From: a virus
Lineage: Duplodnaviria; Caudoviricetes
DNA length: 64,000 nucleotides
Direction: 5' to 3' (one strand)
Virus record (IMG/VR): IMGVR_UViG_3300046678_000067
Coordinates: 1 to 64,000 of that record
In this document: positions 3,343 to 40,227 of the stretch, piece after piece
Position numbering within the stretch: the first letter of the stretch is position 1
Layout: the number at the start of each line of letters is the position of its first letter
Position numbers and translations under genes: made by a program
Notes under the pieces: generated by a model
Told to the model about the DNA's origin: nothing
Seen by the model: the letters and a program-made list of their open reading frames with translations, nothing else
Databases searched by the model: none

Positions 3343-5770
3343 CAGTTAATTCCTCAAACTCTTCAGGTTGAACATCATTACCCCGCAGGGCGTTATAGTC
3401 TACTACATATTGATACAATTTTGGCGATACTGAATCGTCATTATGGACAGGAGTATGGCGGGCCAATAGTTCAAAGGATGGATAGTAAGCATCAAAGTCT
3501 TTCTCCATCTGATCGAATTCTTCTGAGACGTCAATCTCAAGAATCTTAGACCATTCATACCCATCGAAATACTTGATCATCCCGTAAGAACGCAGACGGT
3601 CAATCATTCTCGTTTCCGATGTACTACTAGCTTGTAGATTTTCGGTACTAGCCAATCTCTCCACAAGTTGACGCTCAATCAAGAACGGATGAACATATTC
3701 TTGATTCTTTACTAGCTCTCGCATTAGCGCTTCGGCGTGAGTCTTGAAAGAATAACGAAACCATAGCGGATTCGCAGATTCAACTTTCTTAGCTGAATTA
3801 TACTTCTTGTAATCATCGCTCGGCTCATGTCCATCTAGACGCTCAGCAATAACTTCCTTGAATTCCCGAATCCCATACTCTTTCAGAGCGTTTAGATTGC
3901 CCATACCCGACTTACGGACAATGAACATCTTATAACCGAAAGACTCAGCAAACGCTCGCATATCTTCCATCTTGATGGTTGGATAGTCGATCAGATCGCT
4001 ACGCAACGCCGTTACATAGAAGGTTGAATCAACAAATTCCTTCTTCGCCTTCTCAGCTTGTTCCTCGTAATCATCTTCGGACTCATCGCAATCCGGCAGA
4101 ACCATAGCATCTAGCTCTGACCAACGGAACTTAACTTCCCAATTCTTTCGACTGGAAACATAAGTTACGCCATCAAGAATCTTATCATCCTCTTTAGCGC
4201 GACGTTGAATGTCAGGACGCGGAACGCTACTGAAGAACGTGAAATTGTTCTTAGTGATGCCTGGATGCAACGCCTCGAATCCTTTGATGAAGTCGCTAAA
4301 GTCGGTATGACTTCCCTTAAAGCGAGAGTCAACCCGAACAACAAAGGTGCGATTGGCCCAGCCGCGAGGCATCAAATTCAGCGCTGCTTTCATACGACCA
4401 ATACGATGCTTAGGTTCAAGCTCATCAATCAGTATGAAACGGTATGTTCCTGAATCTATGTTGTTTATGAACTCCCAATTGACCTTCATCTCACGAGCAT
4501 CGCGTTTGATATTCAACCGCAAATCTGACTTCTCAAATTCCTCCATATAGAACTGAGAAACCTTAGCAACCGCGTCAACGAATTTCGGCTCTTGTTTAAT
4601 GAGGTTGTTATCGTCATCATAAATCACCGGTGCGACTACTGGCTTCTTATATTCGTGATCGAAATACGGGAAGGCATTATCAATAATGCGATCATTAATC
4701 AAGAAACCAAGATTGTATACCGCATCGCTAACCGATAGATCAACGTTGGTCGTATTCTTCAGTTCCTTCATCTTCCGCCAAGCGTCTAGCGGAGTTGCCG
4801 CATCCTCAACTTGCTTTCGGAGAATCTTGCGATATTCCGATGCGAACAGATTATACTTCTCAAGGCTTCGTCTAGCAGTATTGTCATCATACGTCAGACC
4901 TTCACGTGACGGCAGCGGCTCTAGATCACCAATATTAAACTCTAGGACCAAAGCTGCATTATGACTCAACTTCTCATAAATGCGATTACCGTAGGGAATA
5001 TTGACCTGAGCGACATCAAGCGGATAAATCACCATACCCATACGAGCATAGACGGCACGAGCAGCCAAACCAAACTCTTGGGCATTAGCAAGAACAAAAC
5101 CATGAGGCGTTTCGATCAGCTTAATAGCTTCAACAAAATCGAATTCCTCAATGTTGTTGATAATCGGCTTCGGCTCCATCACGATCAACTGACGAGTCAG
5201 AGCACGCTTGTATTCAGCATACTTGTTACTCGCAGCCGGAATCATAACCTTGACGCCGTTTGGACGACCATCAGCCGTTTCGCCAGTCTTCAACAAACTT
5301 GGCAATCCGCTTTCAGACTTAAAGCAAAGATAGTGATGAGTGACCCCGTCATAGGTATTCTCTACCGTGAAGGTATCAGTAACCGCGAATGGGGATTTGG
5401 AACCAAGACCAAATGCACCGATTTGATCGTTGGTGTTTTCCTTTGTGGAAAGACCAAGTGTGGAATATAAGTCCTGAGCAACTTCGTCAGGCATACCTGG
5501 ACCGGAATCCTCGACAATGAAGTGAGGTTCAAGATCGGTTGGGAGAGTGACCTTGAAAGGTTCCTGAGGGAGACCCGATGCGAGTGATCGCATCTTCATA
5601 GCGTCCCAGGCATTAGAGCAAACTTCACGCACAACTGACCCAACTCGGTCAGTGTACAATCGGTCGCTCATAATACTGTAAATCTTCGGGGAGAGGGCAA
5701 TACCAAACTGCCGCTCTCCCATCAACCCGCCACGCTGAATATCGCGTGCGCTACTTTGTGTAATCGCCAA
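3329..5770 (-). CDS. rIIA: RIIA-like protein (GHKL ATPase N-terminus)
   Basis: LYTDRVGSVVREVCSNAWDA, DSGPGM, STKENTNDQIGAFGLGSKSPFA. Confidence 0.92.
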   Translation of the reverse strand: MAITQSSARDIQRGGLMGERQFGIALSPKIYSIMSDRLYTDRVGSVVREVCSNAWDAMKMRSLASGLPQEPFKVTLPTDLEPHFIVEDSGPGMPDEVAQDLYSTLGLSTKENTNDQIGAFGLGSKSPFAVTDTFTVENTYDGVTHHYLCFKSESGLPSLLKTGETADGRPNGVKVMIPAASNKYAEYKRALTRQLIVMEPKPIINNIEEFDFVEAIKLIETPHGFVLANAQEFGLAARAVYARMGMVIYPLDVAQVNIPYGNRIYEKLSHNAALVLEFNIGDLEPLPSREGLTYDDNTARRSLEKYNLFASEYRKILRKQVEDAATPLDAWRKMKELKNTTNVDLSVSDAVYNLGFLINDRIIDNAFPYFDHEYKKPVVAPVIYDDDNNLIKQEPKFVDAVAKVSQFYMEEFEKSDLRLNIKRDAREMKVNWEFINNIDSGTYRFILIDELEPKHRIGRMKAALNLMPRGWANRTFVVRVDSRFKGSHTDFSDFIKGFEALHPGITKNNFTFFSSVPRPDIQRRAKEDDKILDGVTYVSSRKNWEVKFRWSELDAMVLPDCDESEDDYEEQAEKAKKEFVDSTFYVTALRSDLIDYPTIKMEDMRAFAESFGYKMFIVRKSGMGNLNALKEYGIREFKEVIAERLDGHEPSDDYKKYNSAKKVESANPLWFRYSFKTHAEALMRELVKNQEYVHPFLIERQLVERLASTENLQASSTSETRMIDRLRSYGMIKYFDGYEWSKILEIDVSEEFDQMEKDFDAYYPSFELLARHTPVHNDDSVSPKLYQYVVDYNALRGNDVQPEEFEELTDEVV

Positions 5771-5779
5771 CCAAAATCC

Positions 5780-6013
5780 TTAATTCATTGTTTGACTCGC
5801 TCGCAATACCGTATGGTTGCGGGAGAACTTACCGCCTTCCAACATCGTCTTGCGACCCCATTGCTTCATCTTCTCTTTTGCTTCGGCGCGCGCAATTGCC
5901 ACGCTCGGATGCTCCTGCTTGAAATCGTTACCGCTGATAAACCCGGTTTCGACTTGCTTTGCCGGGATATACGCGCCTACGATTGCTGCGATTGCGTTGA
6001 GAAGGCTTTTCAT
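5780..6013 (-). CDS. Hypothetical protein
   Basis: ORF with AAGGAG SD downstream of an early-type promoter. Confidence 0.7.
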   Translation of the reverse strand: MKSLLNAIAAIVGAYIPAKQVETGFISGNDFKQEHPSVAIARAEAKEKMKQWGRKTMLEGGKFSRNHTVLRASQTMN

Positions 6014-6072
6014 GATATAGCTCCTTGAGAGGGGTTTCGTTAGGTTAGCGTTCTCGCTTAACCGTTAGAAGA

Positions 6073-6101
6073 ATTATAGTATATATGGAATAAAAAGTAA
6101 A
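6073..6101 (-). promoter_or_regulatory. Sigma70-like phage promoter TTTACT-17-TATAAT
   Basis: Exact motif and 17-nt spacing, recurring across the window. Confidence 0.75.
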
Positions 6102-6114
6102 GCGTCTAATATGA

Positions 6115-6146
6115 AAAAGCCTCTGGATTTCTCCAGAGGCTTTTTG
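6115..6146. terminator. Intrinsic terminator
   Basis: aaaaagcctctgga-tttc-tccagaggcttttt. Confidence 0.8.
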
Positions 6147-6395
6147 TTAATCTTGGGATTCGGGTTGTTCGTCGTCTACCGGATCAGGCGGTAGACCAAG
6201 CTTTGATCTAACAACTTTAGCAATCGACTTTTGCTTATCGGTGACACCATACTTGTGCTTGCCTACCATTTCCTTATCGGTGGCACTCCAAATACTATTG
6301 ACGTGTTCAGCAGGCTTTCCGCTTTTCTTTGATAGACCTTGAACAATACGGTTCACTTCAAGCAAATCAAGATACTCTTGAACTAGATTAGACAT
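6147..6395 (-). CDS. Hypothetical protein (probably late)
   Basis: ORF with GGAG SD and upstream CTAAATA motif. Confidence 0.65.
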   Translation of the reverse strand: MSNLVQEYLDLLEVNRIVQGLSKKSGKPAEHVNSIWSATDKEMVGKHKYGVTDKQKSIAKVVRSKLGLPPDPVDDEQPESQD

Positions 6396-6422
6396 AGGAT
6401 TTCCTCCAATTATATCTTGTAT

Positions 6423-6800
6423 TTAGCTATGAATCACATTTTCGATCCCATACTGAGAAATAACAGCTTGGCAGATAGGACAAGGCTTGCTAGGCATAAG
6501 ACGATACTTGTGATCTAGCCGCATGACCACAATAGTATGTTGTTTGGATAGCTGTTTATAGCTGAGGCGAGAAAGGGCGTGGACTTCGGCGTGAAGGCAA
6601 AACTTCATAGGCTCGTTCTGAGCCAAAGCTGCCTCTTTCTGCATAGGATGAGTCTTGGTATACGAGTTCCAGCCTTCAGTAAGAATGCGACCGCGAGAGT
6701 CAAGAACAAAGGCAACAACCTTCTGCCTATTGTCTTTGACTTCTTCGCGGTCTACTATTCCTATTGCCTTCTTGTGGAACCGAAGGATATTAAGATTCAC
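6423..6800 (-). CDS. Zinc-dependent cytidine/adenosine deaminase-fold protein
   Basis: HAEVHAL...PCPIC motifs; probable GTG start at 6800. Confidence 0.8.
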   Translation of the reverse strand: MNLNILRFHKKAIGIVDREEVKDNRQKVVAFVLDSRGRILTEGWNSYTKTHPMQKEAALAQNEPMKFCLHAEVHALSRLSYKQLSKQHTIVVMRLDHKYRLMPSKPCPICQAVISQYGIENVIHS

Positions 6801-7047
6801 CCCAAGGATCGACGGCAGGTTGCTCTTCAACAACCGGAGCTTCCAACTCGATCACCGAACGCAGATTGTTGATTGCGTAATCCAGATGATTGAGGCGCTC
6901 ACGCTTCTGTTCCACTTCCTTGCTGATAGCCTTAGCTTCAGCAGCAATAACGCTGAGCTTTCCTTCCACGACATTAATCTCAGCGGAAAGTGCCGCCCGA
7001 CGAATGCCCAACGACTTAATTTGTTCTTGCAGTTCCATATTAACCAT
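6790..7047 (-). CDS. Hypothetical coiled-coil protein
   Basis: ORF overlapping neighbours in operon. Confidence 0.6.
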   Translation of the reverse strand: MVNMELQEQIKSLGIRRAALSAEINVVEGKLSVIAAEAKAISKEVEQKRERLNHLDYAINNLRSVIELEAPVVEEQPAVDPWGES

Positions 7048-7669
7048 TCAGTTGTTGTACAGGCTTGTAAACCGTGTTATATGTCTCAAAGATGCCCGTA
7101 TTTGGCTCGATGCGAACGACGCCGCTCGTAGATACCTCATGACAATGACCCAAGCGTGGGTGATCCACGACTTCATCGAGATAGCAACGACCTCCCAATT
7201 GCAGACCATACGGCTTACCAATGTAATGCACTACAGGCTTTTCAGATTCCATTTTGTTTCCTTCAAGATATTTCTCAATTACTACCCAATCAGTTTCGGG
7301 ATCGAAACCGGCTTTATCGTCCAGCAAAACGCTGAAATAGAACTTCTCATCGAAGCTAGAAACGCGGGTATTGCTTTCCCCGTCATTAGCGTTGAAATCA
7401 TAAACTTCGATTCCATTATCATTGAAGAACCCAATGATATCAGACTTCTCATCACTATAGACCGACGACCAAAGAATGATCTTCGTCTCAGGTAGACTAC
7501 TGATCTTCCTCAGAACCCGCAAGGCGGATTGGTTGATCCAACGATAACCACCTTGTTCGTAATTCGACTCCAGACACACGCCGTGCAGGTCTACCGCCCA
7601 ATAGATGGTATCCCAGTTACGTTCTTTCATTGTCTTATATGCACGGGCTACAGCTTTAATGATCGACAA
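7040..7669 (-). CDS. HAD-like hypothetical protein
   Basis: AVDLHGV motif-I-like, IILWSS, LLDDKA motif-IV-like. Confidence 0.55.
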   Translation of the reverse strand: MSIIKAVARAYKTMKERNWDTIYWAVDLHGVCLESNYEQGGYRWINQSALRVLRKISSLPETKIILWSSVYSDEKSDIIGFFNDNGIEVYDFNANDGESNTRVSSFDEKFYFSVLLDDKAGFDPETDWVVIEKYLEGNKMESEKPVVHYIGKPYGLQLGGRCYLDEVVDHPRLGHCHEVSTSGVVRIEPNTGIFETYNTVYKPVQQLNG

Positions 7670-7671
7670 AA

Positions 7672-8919
7672 TCAGCTCCAGTTATCAAACAAAGTTTTAA
7701 CATACGAGGTATTAGCAATAGACCTGGCGCCGTTCATATTCTGAATCGCTTGGCGCATCTTCGCTTCTTTCTCCGCTATCCATCTATCGTAACTGAAGTA
7801 TGTACTAAAGTCTAGCGCATACTTCTGACGAGTATGAAGGCTATCATCCACTGACTTGAGAGCTTCAACCGCCTGATCTAGAAAATCCTTATTGCGATAA
7901 TCGATCATGACCGGCTCTTGAACTCTAGCTAGAAACTCTCTCGTACAATTAGGTTCACCCTTATGAAAGATGATAGACGGAACGCCCTTCTGAGCTGCTT
8001 CAAACGCAGTCAACCCAAATGTTTCATCCGGCCAAGTGATCAAACAGGCCTTAGCTTGAGAGAACGAGTCCATGATCCGACCATACGGCTGGTTCCAACG
8101 AAAGTCGATATTAGCGTTATGCTCAAATAGACCGCGTTGCTTCTCTAACCAAGCCGGATATGTTTTCTGAGTTGAAGGGAAACTCTTCCAAAAGATTCTC
8201 GTTGGATAATAGATATCCTTGATCTTGTGAGTCAGCTTCAGCGGATCGGCTCTAGACGCTGTAACCGCGAATCCTCGTGAATCCACAATCTCGTAATCTT
8301 CCTCAACGAACATGAAATTCTCAAAATGATCGTTGTAGAATGGCAACTTCTGATCTATGATATCTACGAACAAACGATAGTCGTCATCATTCTTCACATA
8401 CTTATCTCTAACCAACTTACCTTGAGAGTAAATCCGGTTGGCGGTCGATTCGGTATTAGCGACAAGATAGGCTCCCATCTTCACCAACTCGTGATAGGCA
8501 GTAATCCGCCCGGTGTCGATGAATAGATTGCCCGTCAAGAATCCGTGAAGCGTCATCAGAGTCGGTATCCCGGTTGTCTGAATAATCTTCTTGGCTGGTG
8601 AGGTAGTGTGGCTATGATACAACATAATATCCGGCTTCTCAGCCTTGATAATGTCAATCACGTTCTTCACACAAACGTTCTGCCAGGAGATTGTACTCAG
8701 ACCTTGCTCAATCGCAGCTTCCTTCGAAACCGGATTGACACATCGGGTCGTGAAGGGAAACTGGAATGGAGTTGCCTCTCCCGCATACAAGAAGATGACT
8801 TCGTGCCCGGCCCGCGTTAGATTGAAGGCGTCATCCTTAGCCACCTTCTCCAGACCGCCAGCTGCGCCTCTCCCCTCCATCGGGGAGCAAACGAAGTTAT
8901 CATATATGATAATTTTCAA
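7672..8919 (-). CDS. GT-B glycosyltransferase (GT4-like)
   Basis: N-terminal GGLEK...GHEV, LMTLHG, C-terminal PDETFGLTAFEAAQKGVP (E-x7-E). Confidence 0.85.
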   Translation of the reverse strand: MKIIIYDNFVCSPMEGRGAAGGLEKVAKDDAFNLTRAGHEVIFLYAGEATPFQFPFTTRCVNPVSKEAAIEQGLSTISWQNVCVKNVIDIIKAEKPDIMLYHSHTTSPAKKIIQTTGIPTLMTLHGFLTGNLFIDTGRITAYHELVKMGAYLVANTESTANRIYSQGKLVRDKYVKNDDDYRLFVDIIDQKLPFYNDHFENFMFVEEDYEIVDSRGFAVTASRADPLKLTHKIKDIYYPTRIFWKSFPSTQKTYPAWLEKQRGLFEHNANIDFRWNQPYGRIMDSFSQAKACLITWPDETFGLTAFEAAQKGVPSIIFHKGEPNCTREFLARVQEPVMIDYRNKDFLDQAVEALKSVDDSLHTRQKYALDFSTYFSYDRWIAEKEAKMRQAIQNMNGARSIANTSYVKTLFDNWS

Positions 8920-9480
8920 TTACTTCTCCAGCAAAATCTCGGGAATTTGTACCCAGCTTTCAGGAGGATTGTAGAAAAAATACTTGGCCTGACCTTTGAA
9001 ACACTTCCAGTATTTGTCCTTACCCTTCATATGGGTCGGTTTCTTCACGCTGACGATCTTGAAGCCTTTCAGCTTCTCAGCAACTTCATCCTCGTTCTTC
9101 GCCTTCGTGTAATACGGAATATCAACGTAATACAGATCAGGTTGATAGACCTTCTCGACCCACTCACGCAACTTCACATGCTGGTGATTCTGAATAGCGA
9201 TAGGGCAAACGATCTTTAATGCCTCTCTGCCAAGCAGGAATGTGCTAGGAAGGGCGAATGTGCCCAGGTCTGGGTCTAGTTCGGGGTCATGGAAGTAGCA
9301 GAATACGGACGCTCCTATCAGCTCAGCATAGTTGCGAATTTCCTGATCGCGTTTGCGGCCGCCCGTATAGACGGAACCGATGATCACGGTATGCCCTTCC
9401 TTAATCCAATCCACCATATGTCGGTGCATCGACAAGAAGGAATCGTCAATGTGAGCTTCTAATACAAAATAAGTTGTCAT
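8920..9480 (-). CDS. PIG-L/LmbE-family N-deacetylase
   Basis: EAHIDDSFLS metal motif, RDQE, P..I.NHQH, YVDIPY. Confidence 0.75.
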   Translation of the reverse strand: MTTYFVLEAHIDDSFLSMHRHMVDWIKEGHTVIIGSVYTGGRKRDQEIRNYAELIGASVFCYFHDPELDPDLGTFALPSTFLLGREALKIVCPIAIQNHQHVKLREWVEKVYQPDLYYVDIPYYTKAKNEDEVAEKLKGFKIVSVKKPTHMKGKDKYWKCFKGQAKYFFYNPPESWVQIPEILLEK

Positions 9481-9483
9481 GAT

Positions 9484-10704
9484 TTACCCGAACATATTGA
9501 ACATATCAAACGCAATATCTACTTCAGTTCGTTTCGGTTCTTCAACAACCTCAACTACCTTACTCGGATCAAACGGCTCAGGATCAGGTCCGTTGAGCGC
9601 TTCGATCACTTCCCGGTACATATTCTTGGCCGAATGCCGTTCGCGGACCCAATCGCGTGCTGCGTAGATACGATCACGATCCAAAGCGAAACTTTGCTTT
9701 TCTCGAATCAAATCCGGCACTTCCTTGGCATCTTCAACCGTTAGGAAGAATTCGCTAGGAATGATCGACTTCTTGGCTTGAGCTGCCAGAATCGGACAAG
9801 AACCATACAGCAGCGCTTCGATGGTCGTGATATTGTAAGCTCCACTCGTATAGGCTTTGAACTTGGGATTACCGATACCCTGAAGATCGATCATGAACCA
9901 AGAACGTCGCAGAATCTCAGGAATCTCATCCAACGACACATAGCCGTAGAATTCAGCATCACCCTTACCGTTGAACCCCTTGAAGTGGTCAGTACCAATC
10001 GCAGCCTTCCACTCGTCGGTCTCTCGCATCTGATAATACAAGATACCGTTGGAATACATCTCCATACGAGCATGTTTTGTGATCTCAGGAATCACGGGCA
10101 TCAGCTTGGTAATACCCTTGATGTTCTTCCATTGGGAAGTCCAGACGACCAGAGGCATTTCACGACGAACAGACTTTGTTTCCTGTTCAAAGATCGGCGC
10201 GTCAATCGCCTTAACCGGCAGACCATACTTGAGGAGTGGTTCAGCGTAAGCCGGTTGCGTCACGAGAGTTTTCTTCACGTGAGGCAGACAGAGCATCGCC
10301 CAATCCTTATAGGTGTCCCAATACGCATCCGTAATGAAAGTCACCTTCGGCAGCTTACAATCGGTATACAGCGGCAAGAATACCGGATCATCACCGTAAG
10401 CCTTATTGGCGTGAGGACAGATATACGCGAAGTACAACGCGTCATAGTTGTCTTCCAGGAACTTGATCGTTCCCTTGATTTGATCTGGGTGGTGGGAACA
10501 ATCTCCGTGAGTCGTAATGAAGGTATCCCCTCCACGAATCACTTGAGGTTCCTTAAACCGCTCCGGTTTGATCGTCTTCATATTACCACAACGGAGCACA
10601 TCGAACGTATCTCCATTGGCTTCTGCTTCCCGCTGCAGTGCAACAAGAACCGAGTTGATTCCTCCGACTGACGACGTAGGGAAGTAGATTGCAGCAATCT
10701 TCAT
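9484..10704 (-). CDS. GT-B-like glycosyltransferase
   Basis: N-terminal SVGGI, WKNIKG, YNITTIEALLYGSCPI, C-terminal RERHSA pattern of GT-B enzymes. Confidence 0.7.
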   Translation of the reverse strand: MKIAAIYFPTSSVGGINSVLVALQREAEANGDTFDVLRCGNMKTIKPERFKEPQVIRGGDTFITTHGDCSHHPDQIKGTIKFLEDNYDALYFAYICPHANKAYGDDPVFLPLYTDCKLPKVTFITDAYWDTYKDWAMLCLPHVKKTLVTQPAYAEPLLKYGLPVKAIDAPIFEQETKSVRREMPLVVWTSQWKNIKGITKLMPVIPEITKHARMEMYSNGILYYQMRETDEWKAAIGTDHFKGFNGKGDAEFYGYVSLDEIPEILRRSWFMIDLQGIGNPKFKAYTSGAYNITTIEALLYGSCPILAAQAKKSIIPSEFFLTVEDAKEVPDLIREKQSFALDRDRIYAARDWVRERHSAKNMYREVIEALNGPDPEPFDPSKVVEVVEEPKRTEVDIAFDMFNMFG

Positions 10705-10729
10705 ATTTTCTCCTGTTAATTACGACTTT

Positions 10730-10778
10730 ATTATATCCTATCTGGTATGTAAAGTCTAGTCCGCTTTCTGACTAAATA
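10730..10778. promoter_or_regulatory. Divergent promoter pair: TAGACT-17-TATAAT (minus, GT operon) and CTAAATA late-type motif (plus)
   Basis: Motifs at 10730-10758 and 10772-10778. Confidence 0.65.
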
Positions 10779-10841
10779 TTAGTAAATCGTCTATGCTTTA
10801 TGCCTGGAACAGTGAAGGGCAACCCAATAAAGGAATTTTAA

Positions 10842-11612
10842 ATGTCTACGACACAAGTTTACCGTTCAGTATTTACGGGCGCTGAGATTGACCAGGCAAT
10901 CTCTGAAATGCGAGGTGCCCTAAGCGCTCAATTAATCTCTAATGATTTCACTGGCGGAACCGGGAAAATCGCTTCGGCTGAGCTCGCCAAGATTCTCAAT
11001 AACAATATCATCGCCAATAATCAACCGGCGAATATCAGAAGCCAACTAACCTCGATTCCAGATTCACACGTTCTAACCGACGCAGAATATTCCAAATTCA
11101 ACTATCTCGGCGGCACATCTTCATTTAGAGGCGTGTTCACTAACGCCGCAAATAGAGATACCACGATTGGTCCTGAGTACGCTCACTATTTGGGTAATGA
11201 GGTTTCCTTCCTGGCGGATGATGGTTCTGGCGATAACCTCTCGGAATTCTCCCGTTGGGACGTACCAACGAGCACCTGGAAGAAGGTTCAACTTTACAAT
11301 GCAGGCGGAACCCCTCCTCAAGTAATTGCTACTGCAAGCGCCACCAACCTATTCTATTTCCGCAAGGCTCGCTATACAGCAATGAAGTGCTTAGTTGCAG
11401 TCTGCGACGCGGCTGGAGCGAATCGCCAGATTCAGGAAGTCTTGATTACCTTCGTTGTAAACGATACCTACATTTCAGTATATAACGAAATTGGTAACTC
11501 ACAAACCCTATTCAACCTAACGACGGCGATTGACGCCAATAACGTCTATGTAGTTGTGAATACGACTGCAGCAAATCTAACGGTGACTGGCAAGATTCTC
11601 GCCATGATCTAA
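10842..11612 (+). CDS. Probable virion structural protein
   Basis: Late-type motif upstream; beta-rich C-terminus; own terminator. Confidence 0.55.
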   Translation: MSTTQVYRSVFTGAEIDQAISEMRGALSAQLISNDFTGGTGKIASAELAKILNNNIIANNQPANIRSQLTSIPDSHVLTDAEYSKFNYLGGTSSFRGVFTNAANRDTTIGPEYAHYLGNEVSFLADDGSGDNLSEFSRWDVPTSTWKKVQLYNAGGTPPQVIATASATNLFYFRKARYTAMKCLVAVCDAAGANRQIQEVLITFVVNDTYISVYNEIGNSQTLFNLTTAIDANNVYVVVNTTAANLTVTGKILAMI

Positions 11613-11615
11613 TGC

Positions 11616-11647
11616 AAAAAGCCCTGAGTTTCCTCAGGGCTTTTCTT
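11616..11647. terminator. Bidirectional terminator
   Basis: aaaagccctgag-tttc-ctcagggctttt. Confidence 0.8.
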
Positions 11648-12046
11648 TTACTCATAAGCAATAGTTTCGGTTTTGTGGATAGCATCAATCAAGGATGCTA
11701 GTTCATATTTCTTACCATTGATCTCAACTAACTCAACCACCTTGGCGATTTCAAACATCGTCACCGGCTTGAAGTCGATTAGGACATAATTGTTCTTTTC
11801 TTTCTCATTAAAATGCTTAATGGAAGAGTAGCAAATAAACCAACCCCTGACATCAGACCGTTCAACATACAGAACATCCTTTTCGGCGTGCTGAACCTTC
11901 TGACCGGAATCGCCGGCCCACTTGGCGTTCAGAGTCTTGAAAAGCCAATTCTGAATCTGCTCTCCATGGTGTGAGTTGGTTTGAAATACTGCAAACTTCT
12001 TCGGCAGATCGTTGATATCAACCGGGATATATTTTGTTTCAGACAC
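11648..12046 (-). CDS. Hypothetical protein
   Basis: ORF with AAGGA SD and GTG start. Confidence 0.65.
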   Translation of the reverse strand: MSETKYIPVDINDLPKKFAVFQTNSHHGEQIQNWLFKTLNAKWAGDSGQKVQHAEKDVLYVERSDVRGWFICYSSIKHFNEKEKNNYVLIDFKPVTMFEIAKVVELVEINGKKYELASLIDAIHKTETIAYE

Positions 12047-13416: not shown

Positions 13417-14010
13417 TCAGATTATGCAAAAGTAACTGTAGAATTTTTGTATTTTTATTACGCGCTCAAGTCTCATCTTGTGGATGATATTACTCTCGGC
13501 GTTTACCCTAACATCAGTAACTATCTCAGGATTACTCTGAAGGATCCAGGCTAGAGGCTCTATAAAACGATCGTCACCAGACCCTAGCAGGCCCGCTACG
13601 GTTTCTATTAGCGTAGAGTCGGAATCCCCTACGGCCTGGAGGGAGAACCGCCTAAGCTCCCCTGCGGCGTTCATCAAGAAGTTGTCCTGGTCGCCGTACT
13701 GTTCCTTCCAATCCTTGTAAATATCCAGCGCTTCTACATCCAACAACTTGTGTATATCAAGGTTCTCGTATCTCGCTTGAGCGAAGAAAAACTCTTCATG
13801 CGAAATGCCTCTGAGACGATTTGCAAGCTGAATGAACTTGACTTTCTCAGGTTTTGTCTTAGCGAGAAACGCCCTCAACGTGATTTTATTTGCTCCACTA
13901 TAGGTCGTGTAGTCGTAGCTAGACCCCGGACCAAAATGCAGTCTAACTGAGACGTAACGCTTATAGACAGCAAATGCTTCTTGCTGTTGATTTTCAATCC
14001 AACTGCTCAT
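13417..14010 (-). CDS. 59: Helicase loader gp59-like
   Basis: AFAVYKRYVSVRLHF...YDYTTY N-terminus and ~200-aa size. Confidence 0.65.
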   Translation of the reverse strand: MSSWIENQQQEAFAVYKRYVSVRLHFGPGSSYDYTTYSGANKITLRAFLAKTKPEKVKFIQLANRLRGISHEEFFFAQARYENLDIHKLLDVEALDIYKDWKEQYGDQDNFLMNAAGELRRFSLQAVGDSDSTLIETVAGLLGSGDDRFIEPLAWILQSNPEIVTDVRVNAESNIIHKMRLERVIKIQKFYSYFCII

Positions 14011-17401: not shown

Positions 17402-17874
17402 ACCGCTTCTTTCCTCATATTAGAACCTACGTCATAACGACTAACAAACTTCCACTGGTCACGCTCAGAATACTTTACAACCTTAAGTGTCTTCAGCGAG
17501 CAAACCGGATCAGCAATCATCTCAGGAGATACTACCTTAATCAAGTTCCACTCCTGGAGAAGATTAATGATGGCATTCTGGCGGGCAATATCGGCTTCTA
17601 CAAGCGTATTCTCTTTACCGTCTAGGACAAACATCGTCTTAAAGTGACAGATGAAATATCGACCACGCTTGTAAAGAATATGACAGGTCTGGTGTAGAGT
17701 CGGAAAGCCTTGATCAAAATCTGGCTTCCCCGGAATTCCGATGCGAGTAAGCGATTCCTTAACTCGCAAGAAACTATCGTTCACCAACTCTACTTCGACT
17801 AGGAAAGGAATGATGTCATCACCTTTCCAATCCGTCTCCACAATATCTACGGCAGTGATTCCGCTAGTATTCAT
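17398..17874 (-). CDS. regA: Translational repressor RegA
   Basis: FLRVKESLTRIGI...LHQTCHILYKRGRYFICHFK. Confidence 0.92.
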   Translation of the reverse strand: MNTSGITAVDIVETDWKGDDIIPFLVEVELVNDSFLRVKESLTRIGIPGKPDFDQGFPTLHQTCHILYKRGRYFICHFKTMFVLDGKENTLVEADIARQNAIINLLQEWNLIKVVSPEMIADPVCSLKTLKVVKYSERDQWKFVSRYDVGSNMRKEAV

Positions 17875-18284
17875 TTCTTGCGACCTCTGCCGATAGTATC
17901 CGAACCGCCCTTGCTGACCATCTTCTTCATGTAATCCAATTCTACCGGATTGATAAGCTTCAGATATTCTTTCGCGCGGTTCCGGTTGACTTGATAGAAT
18001 TCAGACACAACTTCAACGTCAGCCTTATTCGCTTCTTCCTCAACCTTGGCCCACTTACCAAAGCGCTTCTTCTTGATGATTGATTTGTCTAAAAATTTGA
18101 ATTGCATTTCCTTGGATAACCCCGGACGTTTATTCATTTCATTAGCCAGCAGAATCGTGTCAAGGTTCTGGCTTAACCCTTGGAGAATTTGGAAGGTAGG
18201 ATAATCCTTAAACGGGTTATCCTCATCCAATACCAAATCCTTCCCCGTATTGACTTTATCTAACCACTCAAACAGACTTGGCAT
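17871..18284 (-). CDS. 62: Clamp loader small subunit gp62
   Basis: DTILLANEMN...MQFKFL...KKKRFGKWAK; synteny 45-44-62-regA. Confidence 0.85.
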   Translation of the reverse strand: MPSLFEWLDKVNTGKDLVLDEDNPFKDYPTFQILQGLSQNLDTILLANEMNKRPGLSKEMQFKFLDKSIIKKKRFGKWAKVEEEANKADVEVVSEFYQVNRNRAKEYLKLINPVELDYMKKMVSKGGSDTIGRGRKK

Positions 18285-18582
18285 CTTTATTTGCCTCTTT
18301 GAACAAGCCTTCCGCCTTATCCTTTCCCCATAGAAAGATATACAGAGAAAATGAAGCAAGATTCAAAAACGGAATAGCCGCAAAAGCTAACATAATCCAA
18401 GACATTCCGCTCTTGTAATTATACCCAAACTTCGATGCCTGACGACGCCACGGTTCACGATACATACGAAAATCTTCATATGCGAACACTCCGATAAAGA
18501 ATAGAGCGATCCCCACGCAAACTACCAAATACAGCACCAAGGCGTGTGCCCAAGTAATTTGATTCAGGATTGTTTCCATCAT
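18268..18582 (-). CDS. Membrane protein inserted between genes 44 and 62
   Basis: Two hydrophobic segments. Confidence 0.6.
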   Translation of the reverse strand: MMETILNQITWAHALVLYLVVCVGIALFFIGVFAYEDFRMYREPWRRQASKFGYNYKSGMSWIMLAFAAIPFLNLASFSLYIFLWGKDKAEGLFKEANKDAKSV

Positions 18583-19535
18583 TTGAATTGCACCTGCATC
18601 ATGAGTTCGGTACACAGCGCCAAGAAGTGGAGATACTTACTCGGAACCACTTGGTCATACTTTTGATAATCGCCCAGAACCAGAACTGCTTGCGGGATCG
18701 ACTGATCGCTCAAAGCTGGTTCCAGAATCTTAAACAGACGCTCATAAAAGTCGTCTTGCATCCGATCCACGTTGTTGATGACGTAGTTCTGAACTTCCTT
18801 GTACTTCTTGGCCTTCATCGCATCAACTAGCGCTTCGGGACTAGCCGCAGAAGCCTTAGCAAGCGAACCCGGACCAATCTCACCGCCTTGCGATTCCATT
18901 TGAAGGAAAGTAAGCAATCCGCGATTATCCGGGAAGTACGCTTTGACGATGCCGGCAACCGATGCCTTGTCATACGGCGTATTTGTTTCTTCCAGAATAC
19001 CGAATACGCGCTTCAGCATCTGCATCATCATCTTGTTCGAATCCACTTGAGTGAATCGGAATTCGATGTTCGTCAAACGCGACTGCAGCGGATCAATGAT
19101 CTTGCTCTTCGTGTTCGCAGTCAGGATGAAACGACAATGCTTATGGGTTTCTTCGATAATCCCTTTCAGCGCGTCCATTGCTGCAGCCGAGAGACGATCA
19201 GCCTCATCGAAAATAACAACCTTATGGTTTGCTTTCTCGTCACCAAACATCGAGATTGCGGTTGTCGTTGCATACTGCATGACCAATACGCGAATATCGT
19301 CAATGCTGTTGTTCAGGGAAGCGTTCAGAAAAAGCGGTTTGATACCAAGCTCGTTACACAGCGCTTTCGCCGTTGTAGTCTTACCCGTACCAGGAGACGT
19401 AGAAGTCAGAAGCAGATTCGGCAGTTGGCCTTCGCTAATGAACTTACGGAATTGAATCTTGACCGACTCGGGGATGATAACGTCGTCAAGGGTTGCTGGG
19501 CGGAATTTTTCGGCCCAAAGATAAACTTCACTCAT
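18579..19535 (-). CDS. 44: Clamp loader large subunit gp44
   Basis: LWAEKFRP, SPGTGKTT, DEAD, LQSR. Confidence 0.95.
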   Translation of the reverse strand: MSEVYLWAEKFRPATLDDVIIPESVKIQFRKFISEGQLPNLLLTSTSPGTGKTTTAKALCNELGIKPLFLNASLNNSIDDIRVLVMQYATTTAISMFGDEKANHKVVIFDEADRLSAAAMDALKGIIEETHKHCRFILTANTKSKIIDPLQSRLTNIEFRFTQVDSNKMMMQMLKRVFGILEETNTPYDKASVAGIVKAYFPDNRGLLTFLQMESQGGEIGPGSLAKASAASPEALVDAMKAKKYKEVQNYVINNVDRMQDDFYERLFKILEPALSDQSIPQAVLVLGDYQKYDQVVPSKYLHFLALCTELMMQVQFK

Positions 19536-19587: not shown

Positions 19588-20271
19588 TTACAGCTCAAGA
19601 CCAATAAAGGTATTGATCTTGCGGGTCAGATGCGACCACTTGGAGATACCGCGACCGCCCATCTTCAGCAGTTGGACGTTGAAGTCGCCGGACACCAACT
19701 TCAGATTTTCGAGCTTCACGCTTGCTTCGAAGTCATCCGAGTCTTGCTCACCCAGATCCACAACGTAGTCGTTCGACGTATCCAGTTCCGGCGTCGTTGC
19801 GATCAGGAACAATTCCTTGTTCTTCACAACGAACTTCATGAACTTGTGACCCAGAGCCGCAGCCGCCTTTTCGAAGGCTTCCAGCGTATCCTTCTGGAGA
19901 TTGACATCAACGTCAACCTTCGGCAGAACGATCGACTTGCCCGGATGCTTCGCAAAGTCTTCAGGGGTGTAGTAATACTTGATCTTGCTCGAACCAGCCT
20001 TGATGATCATGTGCGTATCGACGTCATCTTCAAAGACCAGTTCTGCATCCTTGAACGATGGCAGCGCCAGAACGCCAAGCAGCTTCGGCAATTCATATAC
20101 CGCAAAGTCAGTCGGGAAAGATTCGGTGATCGTCGCTTCCATCACAATCGAACCAGTAGCCGAAACCGTCTTGATTTCGTTACCCGTTTTGAACGCGAGG
20201 GATTTGTTAATCGAGGATGCAATCTTCAGCACTTGCAGAGTTTCAGCAGACAGCTTAACAACTTTAGACAT
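19588..20271 (-). CDS. 45: Sliding clamp gp45
   Basis: KLSAETLQVLK...SINKSL...FAVYEL; synteny. Confidence 0.9.
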   Translation of the reverse strand: MSKVVKLSAETLQVLKIASSINKSLAFKTGNEIKTVSATGSIVMEATITESFPTDFAVYELPKLLGVLALPSFKDAELVFEDDVDTHMIIKAGSSKIKYYYTPEDFAKHPGKSIVLPKVDVDVNLQKDTLEAFEKAAAALGHKFMKFVVKNKELFLIATTPELDTSNDYVVDLGEQDSDDFEASVKLENLKLVSGDFNVQLLKMGGRGISKWSHLTRKINTFIGLEL

Positions 20272-25720: not shown

Positions 25721-28462
25721 TCAGCTAAACCAGTCCATTACGCTTGCTTGACGGGTTGAGCTCCAGTTAATAGATTTCAACAAGTTATCCAACAGCGACG
25801 TGAAAGACCGTTCGAAGTTAGACTCATAGTTGATATACTTCTCAAGTTTGAATTCAGGAGGCAGCTTACCTTGGAATGCAATACACTCGCACCCATAAGG
25901 ATTAGGTTGTCTCAATTCAACAAACTTAATCTTATCCCCAGACTGAATCTTGGCAATACCAGGAATCTTGTTCTTCTGGATGATATAGTTATGATACAAA
26001 GCCGCCTTAACGTGTTTCGGTGCTCCTTTCGTATAGATGTTATTCGGATCAAAATACTTCTCCAATCCATTCACACCTGACGGAGTCGCAACCCGTTCTA
26101 CCGGCAATGCCATAAACTCTTTCTTCTTCTCCAGACAGAAGTCTTGAAGTTCTGATTCAGTTCCTTGAAGAGCAATCTTATACGCTTCCAACATCCAGTT
26201 TCGGCAATGCTTCGGAGACGACGCCTTAACTGCATCTAGACCAACTGTCTTATGATACAGATCAGGAAAGTAACGAACGCCTTCAGAGTCCGCCACCAGC
26301 ATTGTATAACGCTTCTTAGCCGACCAGATTGCCGACGTCGCAATAACTTCTCGCTTCATAAACATACGTTGGTCGTCTGCATTCACATACTCAGCAAGTT
26401 CCTGATAGCAACTGTCGATGTAAGGTTCGATCTTTTCCGCAAACAGCTTATCCAGGAAGTTGACAATCTTCTCAACTTCAGTCTTTTGCTGTTCCTCAGT
26501 AAAGAGTTTATCAACCAGCTTAGACATATCCAGATAGCAAGAGTCGGTATCCTGATAGATCGCAAAGTTGGTCCCACTTACGACTTCCAGCGTTGTGGCT
26601 GCCGGACGGTTAGTGTGGTGAATCTTATGCTCAACTTCACCCAACTTCAGAACCTTATTCATATACTCATCTAGCTTGCGCGCGATCCAGAGAATCGACA
26701 GCTTACCAGACAACGTAATACCTTCAGCAACCCGAATATCGAAGAACTCACGGAACCACTTATTGCCAATCGCACCGAACAGCGAGTTCATCAGAATCTT
26801 CAACGAGTGCTGATGAACGTCATACGTTGAGATTTTGATCGCCAGTTCTTCCAGAACCATCATTTCTTCAGGAGTCGGATCACGATCACCAATCTTAGCG
26901 TTCAGATTCACTTCCTCTTGTTCGAAGGCAAGCATCTGCTTCTTGACCTTCTTACGAGTATCATAAATCTCTCGCGTCTTTTCGTTGAAGATCGATCTCT
27001 TGCCTCTACGGAAGAATGCACGATTCGCCGTCATACACAAGTTATACTTCTTCAACGCCGACAGATCGACTCGCTTATTGACCAGATCATCCAGAGTGAA
27101 GTTAGGAATGTTCCGAATCTCAAGCGGTAAGTCTTCAGGCTCAACGATAGTTTCAGCCCCAAGGTTATACTGTTGAATCAAGTGAGGATACAGACTGTTC
27201 AAGTCGCAAGATACGACCCACTTAAATCGACCACCCTTGATTTCTCGAACAAACCCACCACCAAACGATACGTCCCCTTCATAGACTGATTTGATCTTAG
27301 GGCGCTGACCTCGATTCACCAACATCGAATACGTCAACGACGACCAAGGACGCACTGTACCAAGCGTATCCTGATAGTTCGCCTTACACAGATACGCAAG
27401 AATGTACGTCAGCTCAAAGAATCGTTTCTTCGCGTTCATCTGTACGATCAAGTCAACGTCGATAACGTTGTACTCTACGGCCTTCTGATAGTTCCGAATA
27501 TACAAAGTATTCAGATTACCTTCATCCGCGTAATCAACCTTACCTTCACCCAGAATCAAACGAGCAACCGTATCAAGCTTGGTGTCATCAGGATTCATAT
27601 AAGCGTGCTTTTCGAACAACTGCTTATAGTCCAGCATTTGAGTGCCGAAATATTCATAAACCGTTTGTTCTTCGCCCCAACCAGTCTTGATCGAGTTACG
27701 GTTCACCATATTCCACGGACTGAGTTTCTTCTTTTGTCCTTCTCCGCAAACTTTCTCAATACGGTTCGTCAGATACGGATTATCGAAGCCCTCAATATAC
27801 CAACCACTCCAGAAGTTGAAAGCCTTCTGTTGCCAGAGACCTACGAAGTCGTTCAACATATCAAACTCTTCACGGAATCCGCGATACTCTACATCTAACT
27901 TTGCTACACGAGGATGATCAGGATTGCGTTCGTAAGTCCCGATGAACTGACCCTTGAAATACTCTAAACCCCAAACATAATACTTCTTCTCAACAGTATG
28001 ATACAAAGTGATCAGGTTGATCGGGTGGGCTGCTTCTTCTGGCTTAGGAAACGGACCATCGATGGGCGCAACCGTACCGTCAGGAAGAACCTCAATATCT
28101 CCAGAGAACGTTTCAATGTCAACGATGGCCCCCTTAATCTTTGCACCGTCATACTTGATCTCTCCCGGATAGAGTTTAGATACAAACTGGTTCATGATAC
28201 TTTCTGTACCATAAACGGCAAAGCCATCGACATCTTTGTAAGATTCGATGAAGCTTCTCATTTCCTTACTATCGGAGAATTGAACCGCCTCTAGTGGCTC
28301 ATCATGCATCGACATTGCGTCGGCTTTGGCGGCATCATTTGTTCGGATATACAACTCAGGCGCGAATTCGATAATCTCACTCTTGTGCTTATCGTCTTCA
28401 TAATATCGCAGGAAAATCTTACTACCACGTACATCAATATTCGTGTAAAAATTATCGCTCAT
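25721..28462 (-). CDS. 43: Family B DNA polymerase gp43
   Basis: DIET exonuclease, DLNSLYP, KILMNSLFG, YQDTDS, KKRY. Confidence 0.97.
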   Translation of the reverse strand: MSDNFYTNIDVRGSKIFLRYYEDDKHKSEIIEFAPELYIRTNDAAKADAMSMHDEPLEAVQFSDSKEMRSFIESYKDVDGFAVYGTESIMNQFVSKLYPGEIKYDGAKIKGAIVDIETFSGDIEVLPDGTVAPIDGPFPKPEEAAHPINLITLYHTVEKKYYVWGLEYFKGQFIGTYERNPDHPRVAKLDVEYRGFREEFDMLNDFVGLWQQKAFNFWSGWYIEGFDNPYLTNRIEKVCGEGQKKKLSPWNMVNRNSIKTGWGEEQTVYEYFGTQMLDYKQLFEKHAYMNPDDTKLDTVARLILGEGKVDYADEGNLNTLYIRNYQKAVEYNVIDVDLIVQMNAKKRFFELTYILAYLCKANYQDTLGTVRPWSSLTYSMLVNRGQRPKIKSVYEGDVSFGGGFVREIKGGRFKWVVSCDLNSLYPHLIQQYNLGAETIVEPEDLPLEIRNIPNFTLDDLVNKRVDLSALKKYNLCMTANRAFFRRGKRSIFNEKTREIYDTRKKVKKQMLAFEQEEVNLNAKIGDRDPTPEEMMVLEELAIKISTYDVHQHSLKILMNSLFGAIGNKWFREFFDIRVAEGITLSGKLSILWIARKLDEYMNKVLKLGEVEHKIHHTNRPAATTLEVVSGTNFAIYQDTDSCYLDMSKLVDKLFTEEQQKTEVEKIVNFLDKLFAEKIEPYIDSCYQELAEYVNADDQRMFMKREVIATSAIWSAKKRYTMLVADSEGVRYFPDLYHKTVGLDAVKASSPKHCRNWMLEAYKIALQGTESELQDFCLEKKKEFMALPVERVATPSGVNGLEKYFDPNNIYTKGAPKHVKAALYHNYIIQKNKIPGIAKIQSGDKIKFVELRQPNPYGCECIAFQGKLPPEFKLEKYINYESNFERSFTSLLDNLLKSINWSSTRQASVMDWFS

Positions 28463-36689: not shown

Positions 36690-37223
36690 TTAAAAACAGA
36701 TACTATCGTCAGTCACTAGAGAGACCATCAATCCCATACGGAATGATTGGCCGTTATCTACTGGCTGTATACCGCGTTGATATTCAAAAATCCTACGCGA
36801 CTCAGTATCTACGCGAAACACCTTAATACCTTTGTTCAAAAGGAAATTGATTCCTGTAACAACCCGATATTCGCGATCAAAAACAACAGCGGCAATCCCA
36901 GCTTCCGCAATATCAACTGCGCAGTTTGGACATGGAGAATCGGTAATGAACATTACCGATCCAACTGCTGACTCGTTTGACCTAATGAGCTTCCTGAGTG
37001 CATTAGGTTCCGCGTGTCTAACCCTTGGGTCTGTAGAACCATCTTCTAGTTCACAAACATTTGGCTCTCCAGAAGGCATCCCATTATATCCAAATGAGAT
37101 GATACGCTCGTCTTTTACAATAAGCGCACCAACCTTCAGTCTTACACAATATGATAGTTCGTCAGCATAGCTGCGCGCTGCTTTCATATGCGCGAACACG
37201 AACTTGTTCTTAAGTTTATTCAA
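36690..37223 (-). CDS. cd: dCMP deaminase
   Basis: SYCVRLKVGA...GYNG...HAEPNA...SPCPNC. Confidence 0.92.
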   Translation of the reverse strand: MNKLKNKFVFAHMKAARSYADELSYCVRLKVGALIVKDERIISFGYNGMPSGEPNVCELEDGSTDPRVRHAEPNALRKLIRSNESAVGSVMFITDSPCPNCAVDIAEAGIAAVVFDREYRVVTGINFLLNKGIKVFRVDTESRRIFEYQRGIQPVDNGQSFRMGLMVSLVTDDSICF

Positions 37224-39616: not shown

Positions 39617-40171
39617 TTAGCGGTAGTAATCGTCCCAATTACTCATCTGCTGATACTGCTCACGATCCCGTTCGAAACCATCGGCGCGAATTCCGGTAAA
39701 CAAGATATGGTTGGCCATATAGCGATGCTCGAAACCTAGTTCCATATGTTCCAACTTATCGTCAATCAAGGTGCCATATGCAACGTAGTGCTTTTCGTGC
39801 GTTGCGATGAAACCATCTGCGAAAGGGAAGCATCGTTTCAAAAAGTTGATCTTAGATTGCGTATGTTCCGGGAAACAGGAACTTACGAATACAATTGTTT
39901 CTCCGCCGTCCTTCGCCCGTTGAAGAGCTTCAACCGATCCTTCAACCGGCTGCAACTTATCATACAAATCCGCGTGACGCCAAAACGATAGAGGATCCAC
40001 ATAATTCTTGATCCCACCAGCTTTAGCCAGAATCTCTTTCATCTCAGGAACCAGATTATAGGTCCGAGTTTTATTGAGAACTGGGATATCTGTGAATTGT
40101 TTAAACCATTCCATCCACGGCGTCAGGGAATCGACTACCGTCAAATCCACGTCTACAGCAATAATACTCAT
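39617..40171 (-). CDS. 5'(3')-deoxyribonucleotidase (HAD, NT5C-like)
   Basis: AVDVDLTVVD, K..FL...FPF, LIDD. Confidence 0.8.
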   Translation of the reverse strand: MSIIAVDVDLTVVDSLTPWMEWFKQFTDIPVLNKTRTYNLVPEMKEILAKAGGIKNYVDPLSFWRHADLYDKLQPVEGSVEALQRAKDGGETIVFVSSCFPEHTQSKINFLKRCFPFADGFIATHEKHYVAYGTLIDDKLEHMELGFEHRYMANHILFTGIRADGFERDREQYQQMSNWDDYYR

Positions 40172-40227
40172 CAACACTCCTAATTAACATACTATGGGCT
40201 ATGCTTTATTATACCCTAGAAATGCGA

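Follow-up and report, generated by a model that had tools for sequence, protein, structure and literature searches.

The window analysed here, by which we mean the opening 64 kb of an IMG/VR viral record that is 116.8 kb long (G000 below; CheckV completeness 74%), carries four minus-strand open reading frames (ORFs) at 7040-10704 that abut with gaps of 3, 0 and 2 nt, and so contains the tightly packed four-gene set that an earlier, sequence-only reading of this DNA had placed at 7040-10758. They encode a divergent GT-B glycosyltransferase of 406 aa that we call GTa (9484-10704), a predicted minimal de-N-acetylase of the PIG-L/LmbE family (186 aa, 8920-9480), a GT-B glycosyltransferase of the GT4 family (415 aa with a TTG start, 7672-8919) and a weakly HAD-like protein of 209 aa (7040-7669). 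We rather incline to the view that these genes serve as the sugar-tailoring part of a pathway for thymidine hypermodification. That its enzymes decorate the phage's own DNA, and not protein or lipopolysaccharide (LPS), is supported by three independent lines of evidence, including the gene neighbourhood and the C-terminal tails described below.

The cassette and its products

The 186-aa protein was called PIG-L/LmbE by the sequence-only reading, and by its sequence it clearly falls in this family. Taken alone it has no Pfam match; PF02585 is matched by 64 of its 72 homologues, the family profile matches Dbv21 (1.4e-10), Orf2*, BshB, LmbE and MshB, and the structural model (pLDDT 92.5) agrees, with a Foldseek probability of 1.00 to Orf2*, Dbv21, BC1534, BshB and MshB. 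The (P/A)-H-x-D-D motif, which holds metal ligands and the general base, is present near the N-terminus (A9-H10-I11-D12-D13), and H10, D12, D13 and H101 are invariant across the 72 family sequences. The protein is reduced to a minimal core and falls about 30% short of the length of solved small-molecule deacetylases (186 aa vs 230-300 aa), and its clade comprises 126 cluster representatives, all from uncultured material.

One residue departs from the family pattern: in the HxxH motif, which comprises a catalytic His and after it the second metal-ligand His, the first position is taken by Asn98. This might be taken to mean that the protein is not a sugar de-N-acetylase at all, and that it hydrolyses another base amide (an acetylaminomethyl group, for example) or is a non-catalytic partner; the superfamily does hold non-deacetylases such as the hydratase GalB, and 5-AcNmdU occurs in PaMx11-type phages (PMC8989533). 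We consider this very improbable, given that the metal and base residues are invariant, that Asn98 looks like a tolerated variant (Asn in 5 of the 72 homologues, His in 67), that the gene adjoins a glycosyltransferase gene in most contigs, and that the clusters are without an acetyltransferase, an FAD lyase or a clade-2 transferase.

GTa is much more isolated in sequence. Alone it matches nothing in Pfam (E <= 0.01), PHROG or NCBIfam, weak PF13439 matches appear in just a few of its homologues, and its alignment profile finds no useful match among PDB sequences. At least 135 homologues are present in a large protein collection, all of them from metagenomes or viral contigs. The AlphaFold2 model (built from 44 homologues, pLDDT 92.4, with only residues 389-406 disordered) is nonetheless a confident GT-B fold, with two Rossmann-like domains and a cleft between them, which bears out the first of the two GT-B calls made from the sequence. 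Its top structural matches in the PDB are all GT4/GT-B enzymes and the best of them is the alpha-glucosyltransferase of phage T4 (AGT), with a lead over the others of less than 2 Z units and with BshA and MshA near the top; a likeness to BshA and MshA is also known for validated DNA GT-B enzymes. The AGT family, PF11440, leaves GTa unmatched both by hmmscan and by a genome search at E <= 10. Because of the narrow margin and the lack of sequence membership in PF11440, we speak of GTa as AGT-like in shape and not as a member of the AGT family. Homology beyond the common fold, either to AGT or to the neighbouring GT4, was considered and not retained, the hhalign probabilities of the GTa profile being too weak (5.5% against T4 AGT, with the alignment restricted to the C-terminal nucleotide-sugar region, and 0.2% against the GT4).

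In one lineage a class-I methyltransferase domain is joined to GTa in a single protein (L030:3247-5016, 589 aa, PF13489), and separate methyltransferase genes follow GTa in L004 (11613-12218) and in the P0116-bearing contig (PF05050). The sugar or sugar amine may thus be methylated in some phages.

The second GT-B call also holds: the 415-aa protein matches PF13439 (7.6e-9, 36.3 bits vs a cut-off of 28.5) and, under the cut-off of that family, PF00534 (20.8 bits), and its homologues match both. The TTG start is backed by homologues that begin MKIIIYDNF. We regard this protein as the probable second-sugar transferase. A locus search made with the GT4 alone recovered only the close relative described below.

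The HAD-like call, on the other hand, survives in a weak form. The match to NF046079 is far below threshold (1.7e-7, 31.6 bits vs a cut-off of 165), there is no Pfam match, and motif I reads D-L-H (D-x-H) instead of the D-x-D of HAD phosphatases; the assignment is supported by phrog_1238 (7.7e-7) and by the nearest ESM Atlas clusters, which are small viral HAD-like proteins (scores 0.84-0.90). The protein consists of a core (about residues 18-138) and a C-terminal extension of 70 aa. In the close relative G001 the last ~70 residues form a separate ORF (L001:13028-13432 and 13697-13909), and two genes may have fused to give that of the window. The copy in the ESM Atlas begins at residue 14.

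The sequence-only reading had placed the four genes under one promoter. A sigma-70-like match, TAGACT-N17-TATAAT, is indeed found on the minus strand upstream of GTa (10730-10758) and ties for the best match in 5700-11700; it agrees with the consensus at 10 of 12 positions and is a consensus match alone. Downstream of the cassette lies a minus-strand dCMP (deoxycytidine monophosphate) deaminase gene (6423-6833; PF00383 1.1e-11, phrog_174). Between this gene and the glycosyltransferase genes no terminator-like site outscores a hairpin at 6114-6145 (strand unspecified), which has a 14-bp stem flanked on both sides by T/A runs and is the likely end of the unit. Since the next strong hairpin occurs only there, the unit may extend over an 85-aa ORF, the dCMP deaminase and an 82-aa ORF, and the deaminase is, judging from this arrangement, probably co-transcribed with the sugar cassette. 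On the other side, a divergently transcribed ORF of 256 aa (10842-11612, plus strand) matches phrog_25346 (function unknown), with a weak match to baseplate wedge/tail-fibre connector proteins, and is kept in G001 at 62% identity.

The company of GTa and the tails of the glycosyltransferases

The source phage is a distant relative of T4 and encodes rIIA, rIIB, gp32, a gp33-like coactivator and PhoH. Its family-B DNA polymerase (25721-28462, minus strand) is at most 40% identical to known enzymes, the best being that of Ralstonia phage RSP15, and searches by phmmer with the T4 proteins identify the gp45 sliding clamp (19588-20271, minus strand; 2.6e-14) and, beside it, the clamp loader subunits gp44 (18579-19535; 8.6e-39) and gp62 (17871-18359; 4.3e-11). 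The closest complete relative, G001 (170,684 bp, rated 100% complete), is about 70% identical to G000 in DNA; the entire cassette is syntenic in the two, and GTa is 80% identical. The cassette is contained in one sequencing run, a rhizosphere metagenome that is probably the sample of origin, and in none of the RNA runs of the sequencing-run listing. Among 50,697 cultured-phage records there was no match by blastn of the cassette or by tblastn of GTa and PIG-L, so that no studied phage is usable as a stand-in.

When IMG/VR was scanned with the GTa alignment, 10 loci were obtained, the neighbouring ORFs of which were clustered and then scanned. The PIG-L clade is present in all ten (adjacent to GTa in six, within ~3 kb in four), PF18723 in all 11 records (the 10 loci and the window), and PF00303, the ThyA family, in 9 of the 10 other records, at 1-6 kb from GTa. 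A recurring block can be recognised, made up of GTa, PIG-L, the PF18723 'HMUDK_hel' protein, a ThyA-family protein of 330-430 aa and an HD/YfbR-like or NT5C-like deoxynucleotidase, with a TAGT-like GT-A (phrog_842, the T6-type second glucosyltransferase) and a methyltransferase or DUF3310 as frequent extras. Three further contigs (from NCBI, ENA and Logan) repeat the order GTa / PIG-L / PF18723 / ThyA / YfbR-like HD, in one case beside a UDG-PolA fusion polymerase. Altogether, GTa occurs with a PF18723 gene in 16 of 16 viral contigs checked, and most of these add PIG-L, a ThyA of the dUMP (deoxyuridine monophosphate) type and an HD or NT5C nucleotidase. The PF18723 gene lies directly against GTa in two more T4-like relatives, which have rIIB, gp25 and the same split gp5; in one of them a TAGT gene intervenes. 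This suggests that the two genes are linked in the window as well, even though they stand apart there. A distant member of the PIG-L clade (P0198) sits between a Tet_JBP dioxygenase and a radical SAM/SPASM gene (L033:6162-8550). Such neighbourhoods suggest that the GTa and PIG-L families accompany DNA-base-modification genes in unrelated phage backbones.

The second observation concerns the C-terminal ends. GTa ends in ..AFDMFNMFG after a disordered linker, the GT4 in ..TLFDNWS, the PF18723 protein in ..VNLFEGF, and the phage's own polymerase in ..SVMDWFS; the T4 records of gp43, gp55 and gp33 end in SLDFLFG, SLDFLY.. and TLDFLL, respectively. From work on T4 and RB69, the tails of gp43, gp55 and gp33 are known to bind the gp45 clamp. 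A pattern for such tails, sought in the last 12 residues, is found in 4 of the 159 ORFs of the genome, three of which are GTa, GT4 and PF18723 (hypergeometric P 6e-5, a post hoc value as the pattern was written after the tails had been viewed). The tails are conserved: the 11 aligned GTa homologues from the T4-like lineage all end in a sequence like x-D-[LM]-F-x-x-[FW] after a variable linker rich in Lys, Glu and Pro, seven of seven GT4 homologues have an end like SLFD[LF], and the T4-like PF18723 proteins one like [ND]LF[DE]x. The GTa homologues of small PolA phages (~370 aa) stop short of the tail, and no such tail is present in the PIG-L and HAD-like proteins, or in T4 AGT. In Ackermannviridae, a family with T4-type clamps, the PF18723 homologues (P0306-P0339, ViI-like clade 1) end in ..SKNLLNLFKK, which is also clamp-docking-like. 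Tails that resemble clamp tethers suggest that both glycosyltransferases work on DNA and not on soluble metabolites.

Together, the constant company of PF18723 and the tails support the DNA-hypermodification reading originally made from the sequence, and the acceptor of GTa would be a hydroxymethyl pyrimidine in duplex DNA, for which gene neighbourhood and clamp-like tails provide indirect support. They also bear on the idea that the target is something other than DNA, be it the proteins of the virion, the LPS or cell wall of the host (seroconversion), or a metabolite with no connection to DNA. Enzymes of the GT4 and PIG-L types do commonly act on lipids, cell-wall polymers and metabolites, one GT4 homologue is annotated 'glycosyltransferase involved in cell wall biosynthesis', and capsid-glycosylating phage glycosyltransferases exist. 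Against this stand the tie of GTa to ThyA, PF18723 and nucleotidase genes across very different phage backbones, the probable co-transcription of the dCMP deaminase with GTa, the resemblance of the tails to clamp-docking tails, the position of AGT as top structural match, and the fact that no membrane or lipid-carrier features were seen. We think that a target outside DNA is quite improbable.

Probable thymine-pathway genes and the predicted modified base

The PF18723 protein of the window (38512-39585, minus strand; PF18723 2e-61, phrog_2396) is a stand-alone member of clade 1 of the alpha-glutamyl/putrescinyl thymine pyrophosphorylases (aGPT-Pplase), the clade of ViI gp160. Near it are encoded, on the same strand, an NT5C-like pyrimidine 5'-deoxynucleotidase (39617-40177; PF06941 1.6e-8) and, at 36690-37223, a second dCMP/cytidine deaminase (PF00383 7.4e-18), the three genes lying ~28 kb from the cassette. 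The fragment therefore has two deaminase genes, one with the sugar cassette and the other near PF18723 and NT5C. Homologues of the PF18723 protein (~38% identity) were found in 374 cultured-phage records, mostly Ackermannviridae; the annotation of the one in Salmonella phage vB_SentM_sal1 reads 'alpha-glutamyl/putrescinyl thymine pyrophosphorylase clade 1', and the copy of Shigella phage Ag3 is labelled orf00160, like ViI gp160. The Pfam name is explained by some homologues that carry a P-loop kinase (PF18748) fused at the C-terminus. A Cys-Glu pair is invariant in the family (C307-E308 in the window protein) and recalls, in clade-2 amino-acid:DNA transferases, the essential Cys with its neighbouring Glu (PMC8989533). 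Neither the family profile nor the window protein alone has a useful match among PDB sequences, and homology to PaMx11 gp46 (8Z2M) was considered, but sequence searches could not demonstrate it. In the literature searched, an activity is assigned to clade-2 aGPT-Pplase alone, and no function is given for clade 1.

The sequence-only reading left the base as 5-hydroxymethyluracil (hmU) or 5-hydroxymethylcytosine (hmC), and proposed that the rest of the genome be searched for a hydroxymethylase. The outcome is divided: no ThyA homologue is present on the 116.8-kb fragment, and ThyX (PF02511) was not found in G000, whereas the complete relative G001 has a clear ThyA homologue (a 363-aa ORF at 141758-142846, minus strand, or L027:1758-2846), with E 2e-36 by our own hidden Markov model (HMM), built from the ThyA homologues of the GTa clusters, and 1e-85 to phrog_3676 'thymidylate synthase'. 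As G000 is alignable only to G001 ~1.5-116 kb, the gene falls in the part that the fragment lacks. The genome search with PF00303 gave a false negative here (0 candidates for G001), and absences reported by the same tool are accordingly weak, namely those of PF18748, PF18747, PF18724, PF12851 and PF11440.

The best PDB relative of these ThyA homologues is the CMP hydroxymethylase MilA, and not the thymidylate synthases. At the position of E. coli N177, which is Asp in the cytosine-specific MilA, the homologues of G001 and of 12 further GTa contigs carry Asn; the catalytic Cys is retained, as is Asp at the position of E. coli D169. By the residue rules given in PMC13326640, this indicates dUMP as substrate and not a 5-hydroxy-dCMP synthase. 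That the product is hydroxymethyl and not methyl is what we infer from the company that the gene keeps.

The base is in this way narrowed to thymine, as 5-hydroxymethyl-deoxyuridine (5-hmdU), a choice which the data support over hmC. The reading in which a cytosine derivative is modified (5-hmC or 5-hydroxycytosine, 5hoC), as in T-even phages, RB69 and DLP3, has in its favour the T4-like backbone and the position of the cassette, which in the window adjoins rIIA/rIIB, where Straboviridae hold cytosine-arabinosylation clusters (PMC13326640). We have rejected it on the ThyA specificity residues, that is, Asn and not Asp at N177, D169 kept, and no 5hoC-synthase signature (PMC13326640); PF18723 is moreover a thymidine-pathway family, and two dCMP deaminases with deoxynucleoside monophosphate (dNMP) nucleotidases suit a dUMP route, which leaves a cytosine target with hardly any credibility.

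In the known thymidine pathways, 5-hmdU is usually handled by a DNA kinase (PF18748). Among the 11 records this kinase was found only in G002, and neither G000 nor G001 has a match to a local HMM of the kinase halves (best E 0.65). The route thus seems to do without the 5-hmdU DNA kinase that is usual elsewhere. The clade-2 transferase ADDT (PF18724) and TET/JBP were likewise not found in the 11 records, by a search able to miss genes; TET/JBP as the source of hmU was rejected for this reason and because there is a ThyA homologue. Near the RNA-repair genes, the one kinase-like ORF with a Walker-A motif encodes a P-loop protein of 180 aa (54363-54905, plus strand; GLPGSGKS). This is probably a kinase for polynucleotides or dNMPs, and the 5-hmdU kinase HMM does not match it (E 1.5).

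These genes also allow the main rival of our reading to be stated, a small-molecule route like that of bacillithiol or mycothiol, in which GTa would make GlcNAc-X (GlcNAc, N-acetylglucosamine), PIG-L would yield GlcN-X, and PF18723 would join the amine to 5-hmdU at its C5 methylene, the product being an N-linked amino-sugar thymine; X could be built by the GT4 and HAD proteins in the manner of a sucrose-phosphate synthase and its phosphatase. Such a scheme would account for the Cys-Glu pair of PF18723. It fits poorly, however, with clamp-docking-like tails on both glycosyltransferases and with a PIG-L protein reduced to a 186-aa core, no kinase was found that would activate 5-hmdU, and the second glycosyltransferase of some clusters is a T6-type TAGT-like DNA enzyme. 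We regard this route as unlikely, though it deserves to be kept in mind.

A proposed pathway and its relation to known systems

The pathway that we propose, in which the sugars are built on the DNA itself, would run as follows. The dCMP deaminases and nucleotidases would shift the nucleotide pool towards dUMP, from which the ThyA-family dUMP hydroxymethylase (seen in the complete relative) would make 5-hm-dUMP, and the phage polymerase would place 5-hmdU in DNA instead of T. After replication, GTa, as a GT-B enzyme of the retaining type, would transfer to the hydroxymethyl group an N-acetylhexosamine (HexNAc), in the simplest case GlcNAc donated by UDP-GlcNAc, and would be held on DNA by docking of its C-terminal tail on the gp45 sliding clamp. 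PIG-L would then remove the N-acetyl group and leave a positively charged amine, a step which is predicted from family chemistry alone, and the clamp-tailed GT4 would add a second sugar, its place being taken in small phages by the TAGT-like GT-A. The PF18723 protein would belong to the same pathway, either as a subunit that recognises or flips 5-hmdU or as a Cys/Glu catalyst at the C5 methylene. The likely benefit would be resistance to host nucleases. There is precedent for part of this, in that phage glycosyltransferases place GlcNAc or HexNAc on 5hmC in DNA (PMC8256090; bioRxiv 10.1101/2023.12.21.572611).

The addition of GlcNAc, its de-N-acetylation to a cationic sugar, the second sugar and the anti-restriction purpose are all inferences on our part. 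The full form of the proposal is a possibility that we advance tentatively: a kinase-free thymidine hypermodification in which the clade-1 protein, an AGT-shaped glycosyltransferase and a mini PIG-L make a cationic glucosaminyl, then disaccharide, thymine, and in which transferases riding on the clamp couple modification to the fork.

Several points weigh against this proposal and should be stated together. The pathway is known here from genes, folds, neighbourhoods and tails alone, and its chemistry is predicted. The hydroxymethylase is extrapolated from a ~70%-identical relative, PIG-L has Asn98 where most homologues have His, and the conserved Cys-Glu pair of PF18723 would have a role that a simple O-glycosylation scheme does not explain. 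The two short T4-like contigs with PF18723 directly beside GTa have no PIG-L, from which it follows that deacetylation is not obligatory to the core of the system. Finally, the binding of the tails to the clamp is putative, being read from likeness of sequence; a complex prediction with three gp45 copies and the GTa tail (365-406) scored 0.16 against a mark of 0.34, which speaks neither for nor against it.

If the proposal is true, positively charged amino-sugar thymine derivatives would be a new chemical class in natural DNA, and PIG-L deacetylases a new class of enzymes working on DNA-borne groups. It would give a first functional context to clade-1 aGPT-Pplase (PF18723), which is widespread, including in Ackermannviridae, and would suggest that a sliding clamp can recruit DNA-modifying enzymes. 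Such bases would be of interest for DNA resistant to restriction and CRISPR and as tools for enzymatic DNA labelling, and could explain the poor sequencing of some phage genomes. With at least 135 members of GTa and 126 PIG-L representatives, all uncultured, this chemistry is probably common among the viromes of soil and water.

It remains to place the module among systems already described, bearing in mind that in the literature searched we did not find a description of the GTa/PIG-L module, of the predicted base or of clamp-tethered DNA-modifying enzymes. The most familiar comparison is the glucosylation of hmC in T-even phages by T4 AGT (PF11440, CAZy GT72), and the system of the window can be likened to T-even glucosylation applied to hmU. 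It differs from it in that GTa has no sequence membership in the AGT family, in the predicted base (hmU vs hmC), in the addition of PIG-L and PF18723 to the module, and in the clamp-docking-like tails, which T4 AGT lacks.

The thymidine pathways of ViI, M6, PaMx11, PhiW-14 and SH-Ab 15599 (PMC5889632, PMC8989533, PMC13458397) proceed by the 5-hmdU kinase 5-HMUDK, aGPT-Pplase2/ADDT and tailoring enzymes. They have in common with the present one a dUMP-type ThyA, dCMP deaminase, deoxynucleotidases, a member of the aGPT-Pplase family and 5-hmdU that is tailored after replication (as we predict for the window). Here, on the contrary, no P-loop 5-hmdU kinase or clade-2 transferase was found, and the clusters scanned contain sugar enzymes instead of PLP, radical SAM, FAD or acetyltransferase tailoring genes.

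The succession of a GT4-like GT-B and a PIG-L de-N-acetylase is shared with BshA/BshB, MshA/MshB and PIG-A/PIG-L. Unlike the synthesis of bacillithiol and mycothiol, the window system is without a ligase step, stands in a viral, DNA-linked context and has a deacetylase about 30% shorter, and its likely acceptor is a DNA base. In TET/JBP-linked glycosylation (phage 5mYOX with TAGT, and base J) the shared idea is Glc or GlcNAc on a hydroxymethyl pyrimidine in DNA, and there are material links as well, with a TAGT-like GT-A in several GTa clusters and one member of the PIG-L clade beside Tet_JBP. In our case, however, the hydroxymethyl group is predicted to come from the ThyA homologue before replication, and TET/JBP was not found in the records searched.

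Thymidine that carries sugars, including HexNAc, on a phosphorylated linker of the hydroxypentyl type has been described for SP-15, YerA41 and Carin-5 (PMC12686479, PMC13697223), which are jumbo phages with other polymerases. In Carin-5, glycosyltransferases and a predicted GlcNAc N-deacetylase, which bears the annotation of polysaccharide deacetylase rather than PIG-L, are encoded in one block (PMC12686479). We consider Carin-5 the nearest published hint of the chemistry proposed here, with a different enzyme family, a different scaffold and a function that is itself predicted.

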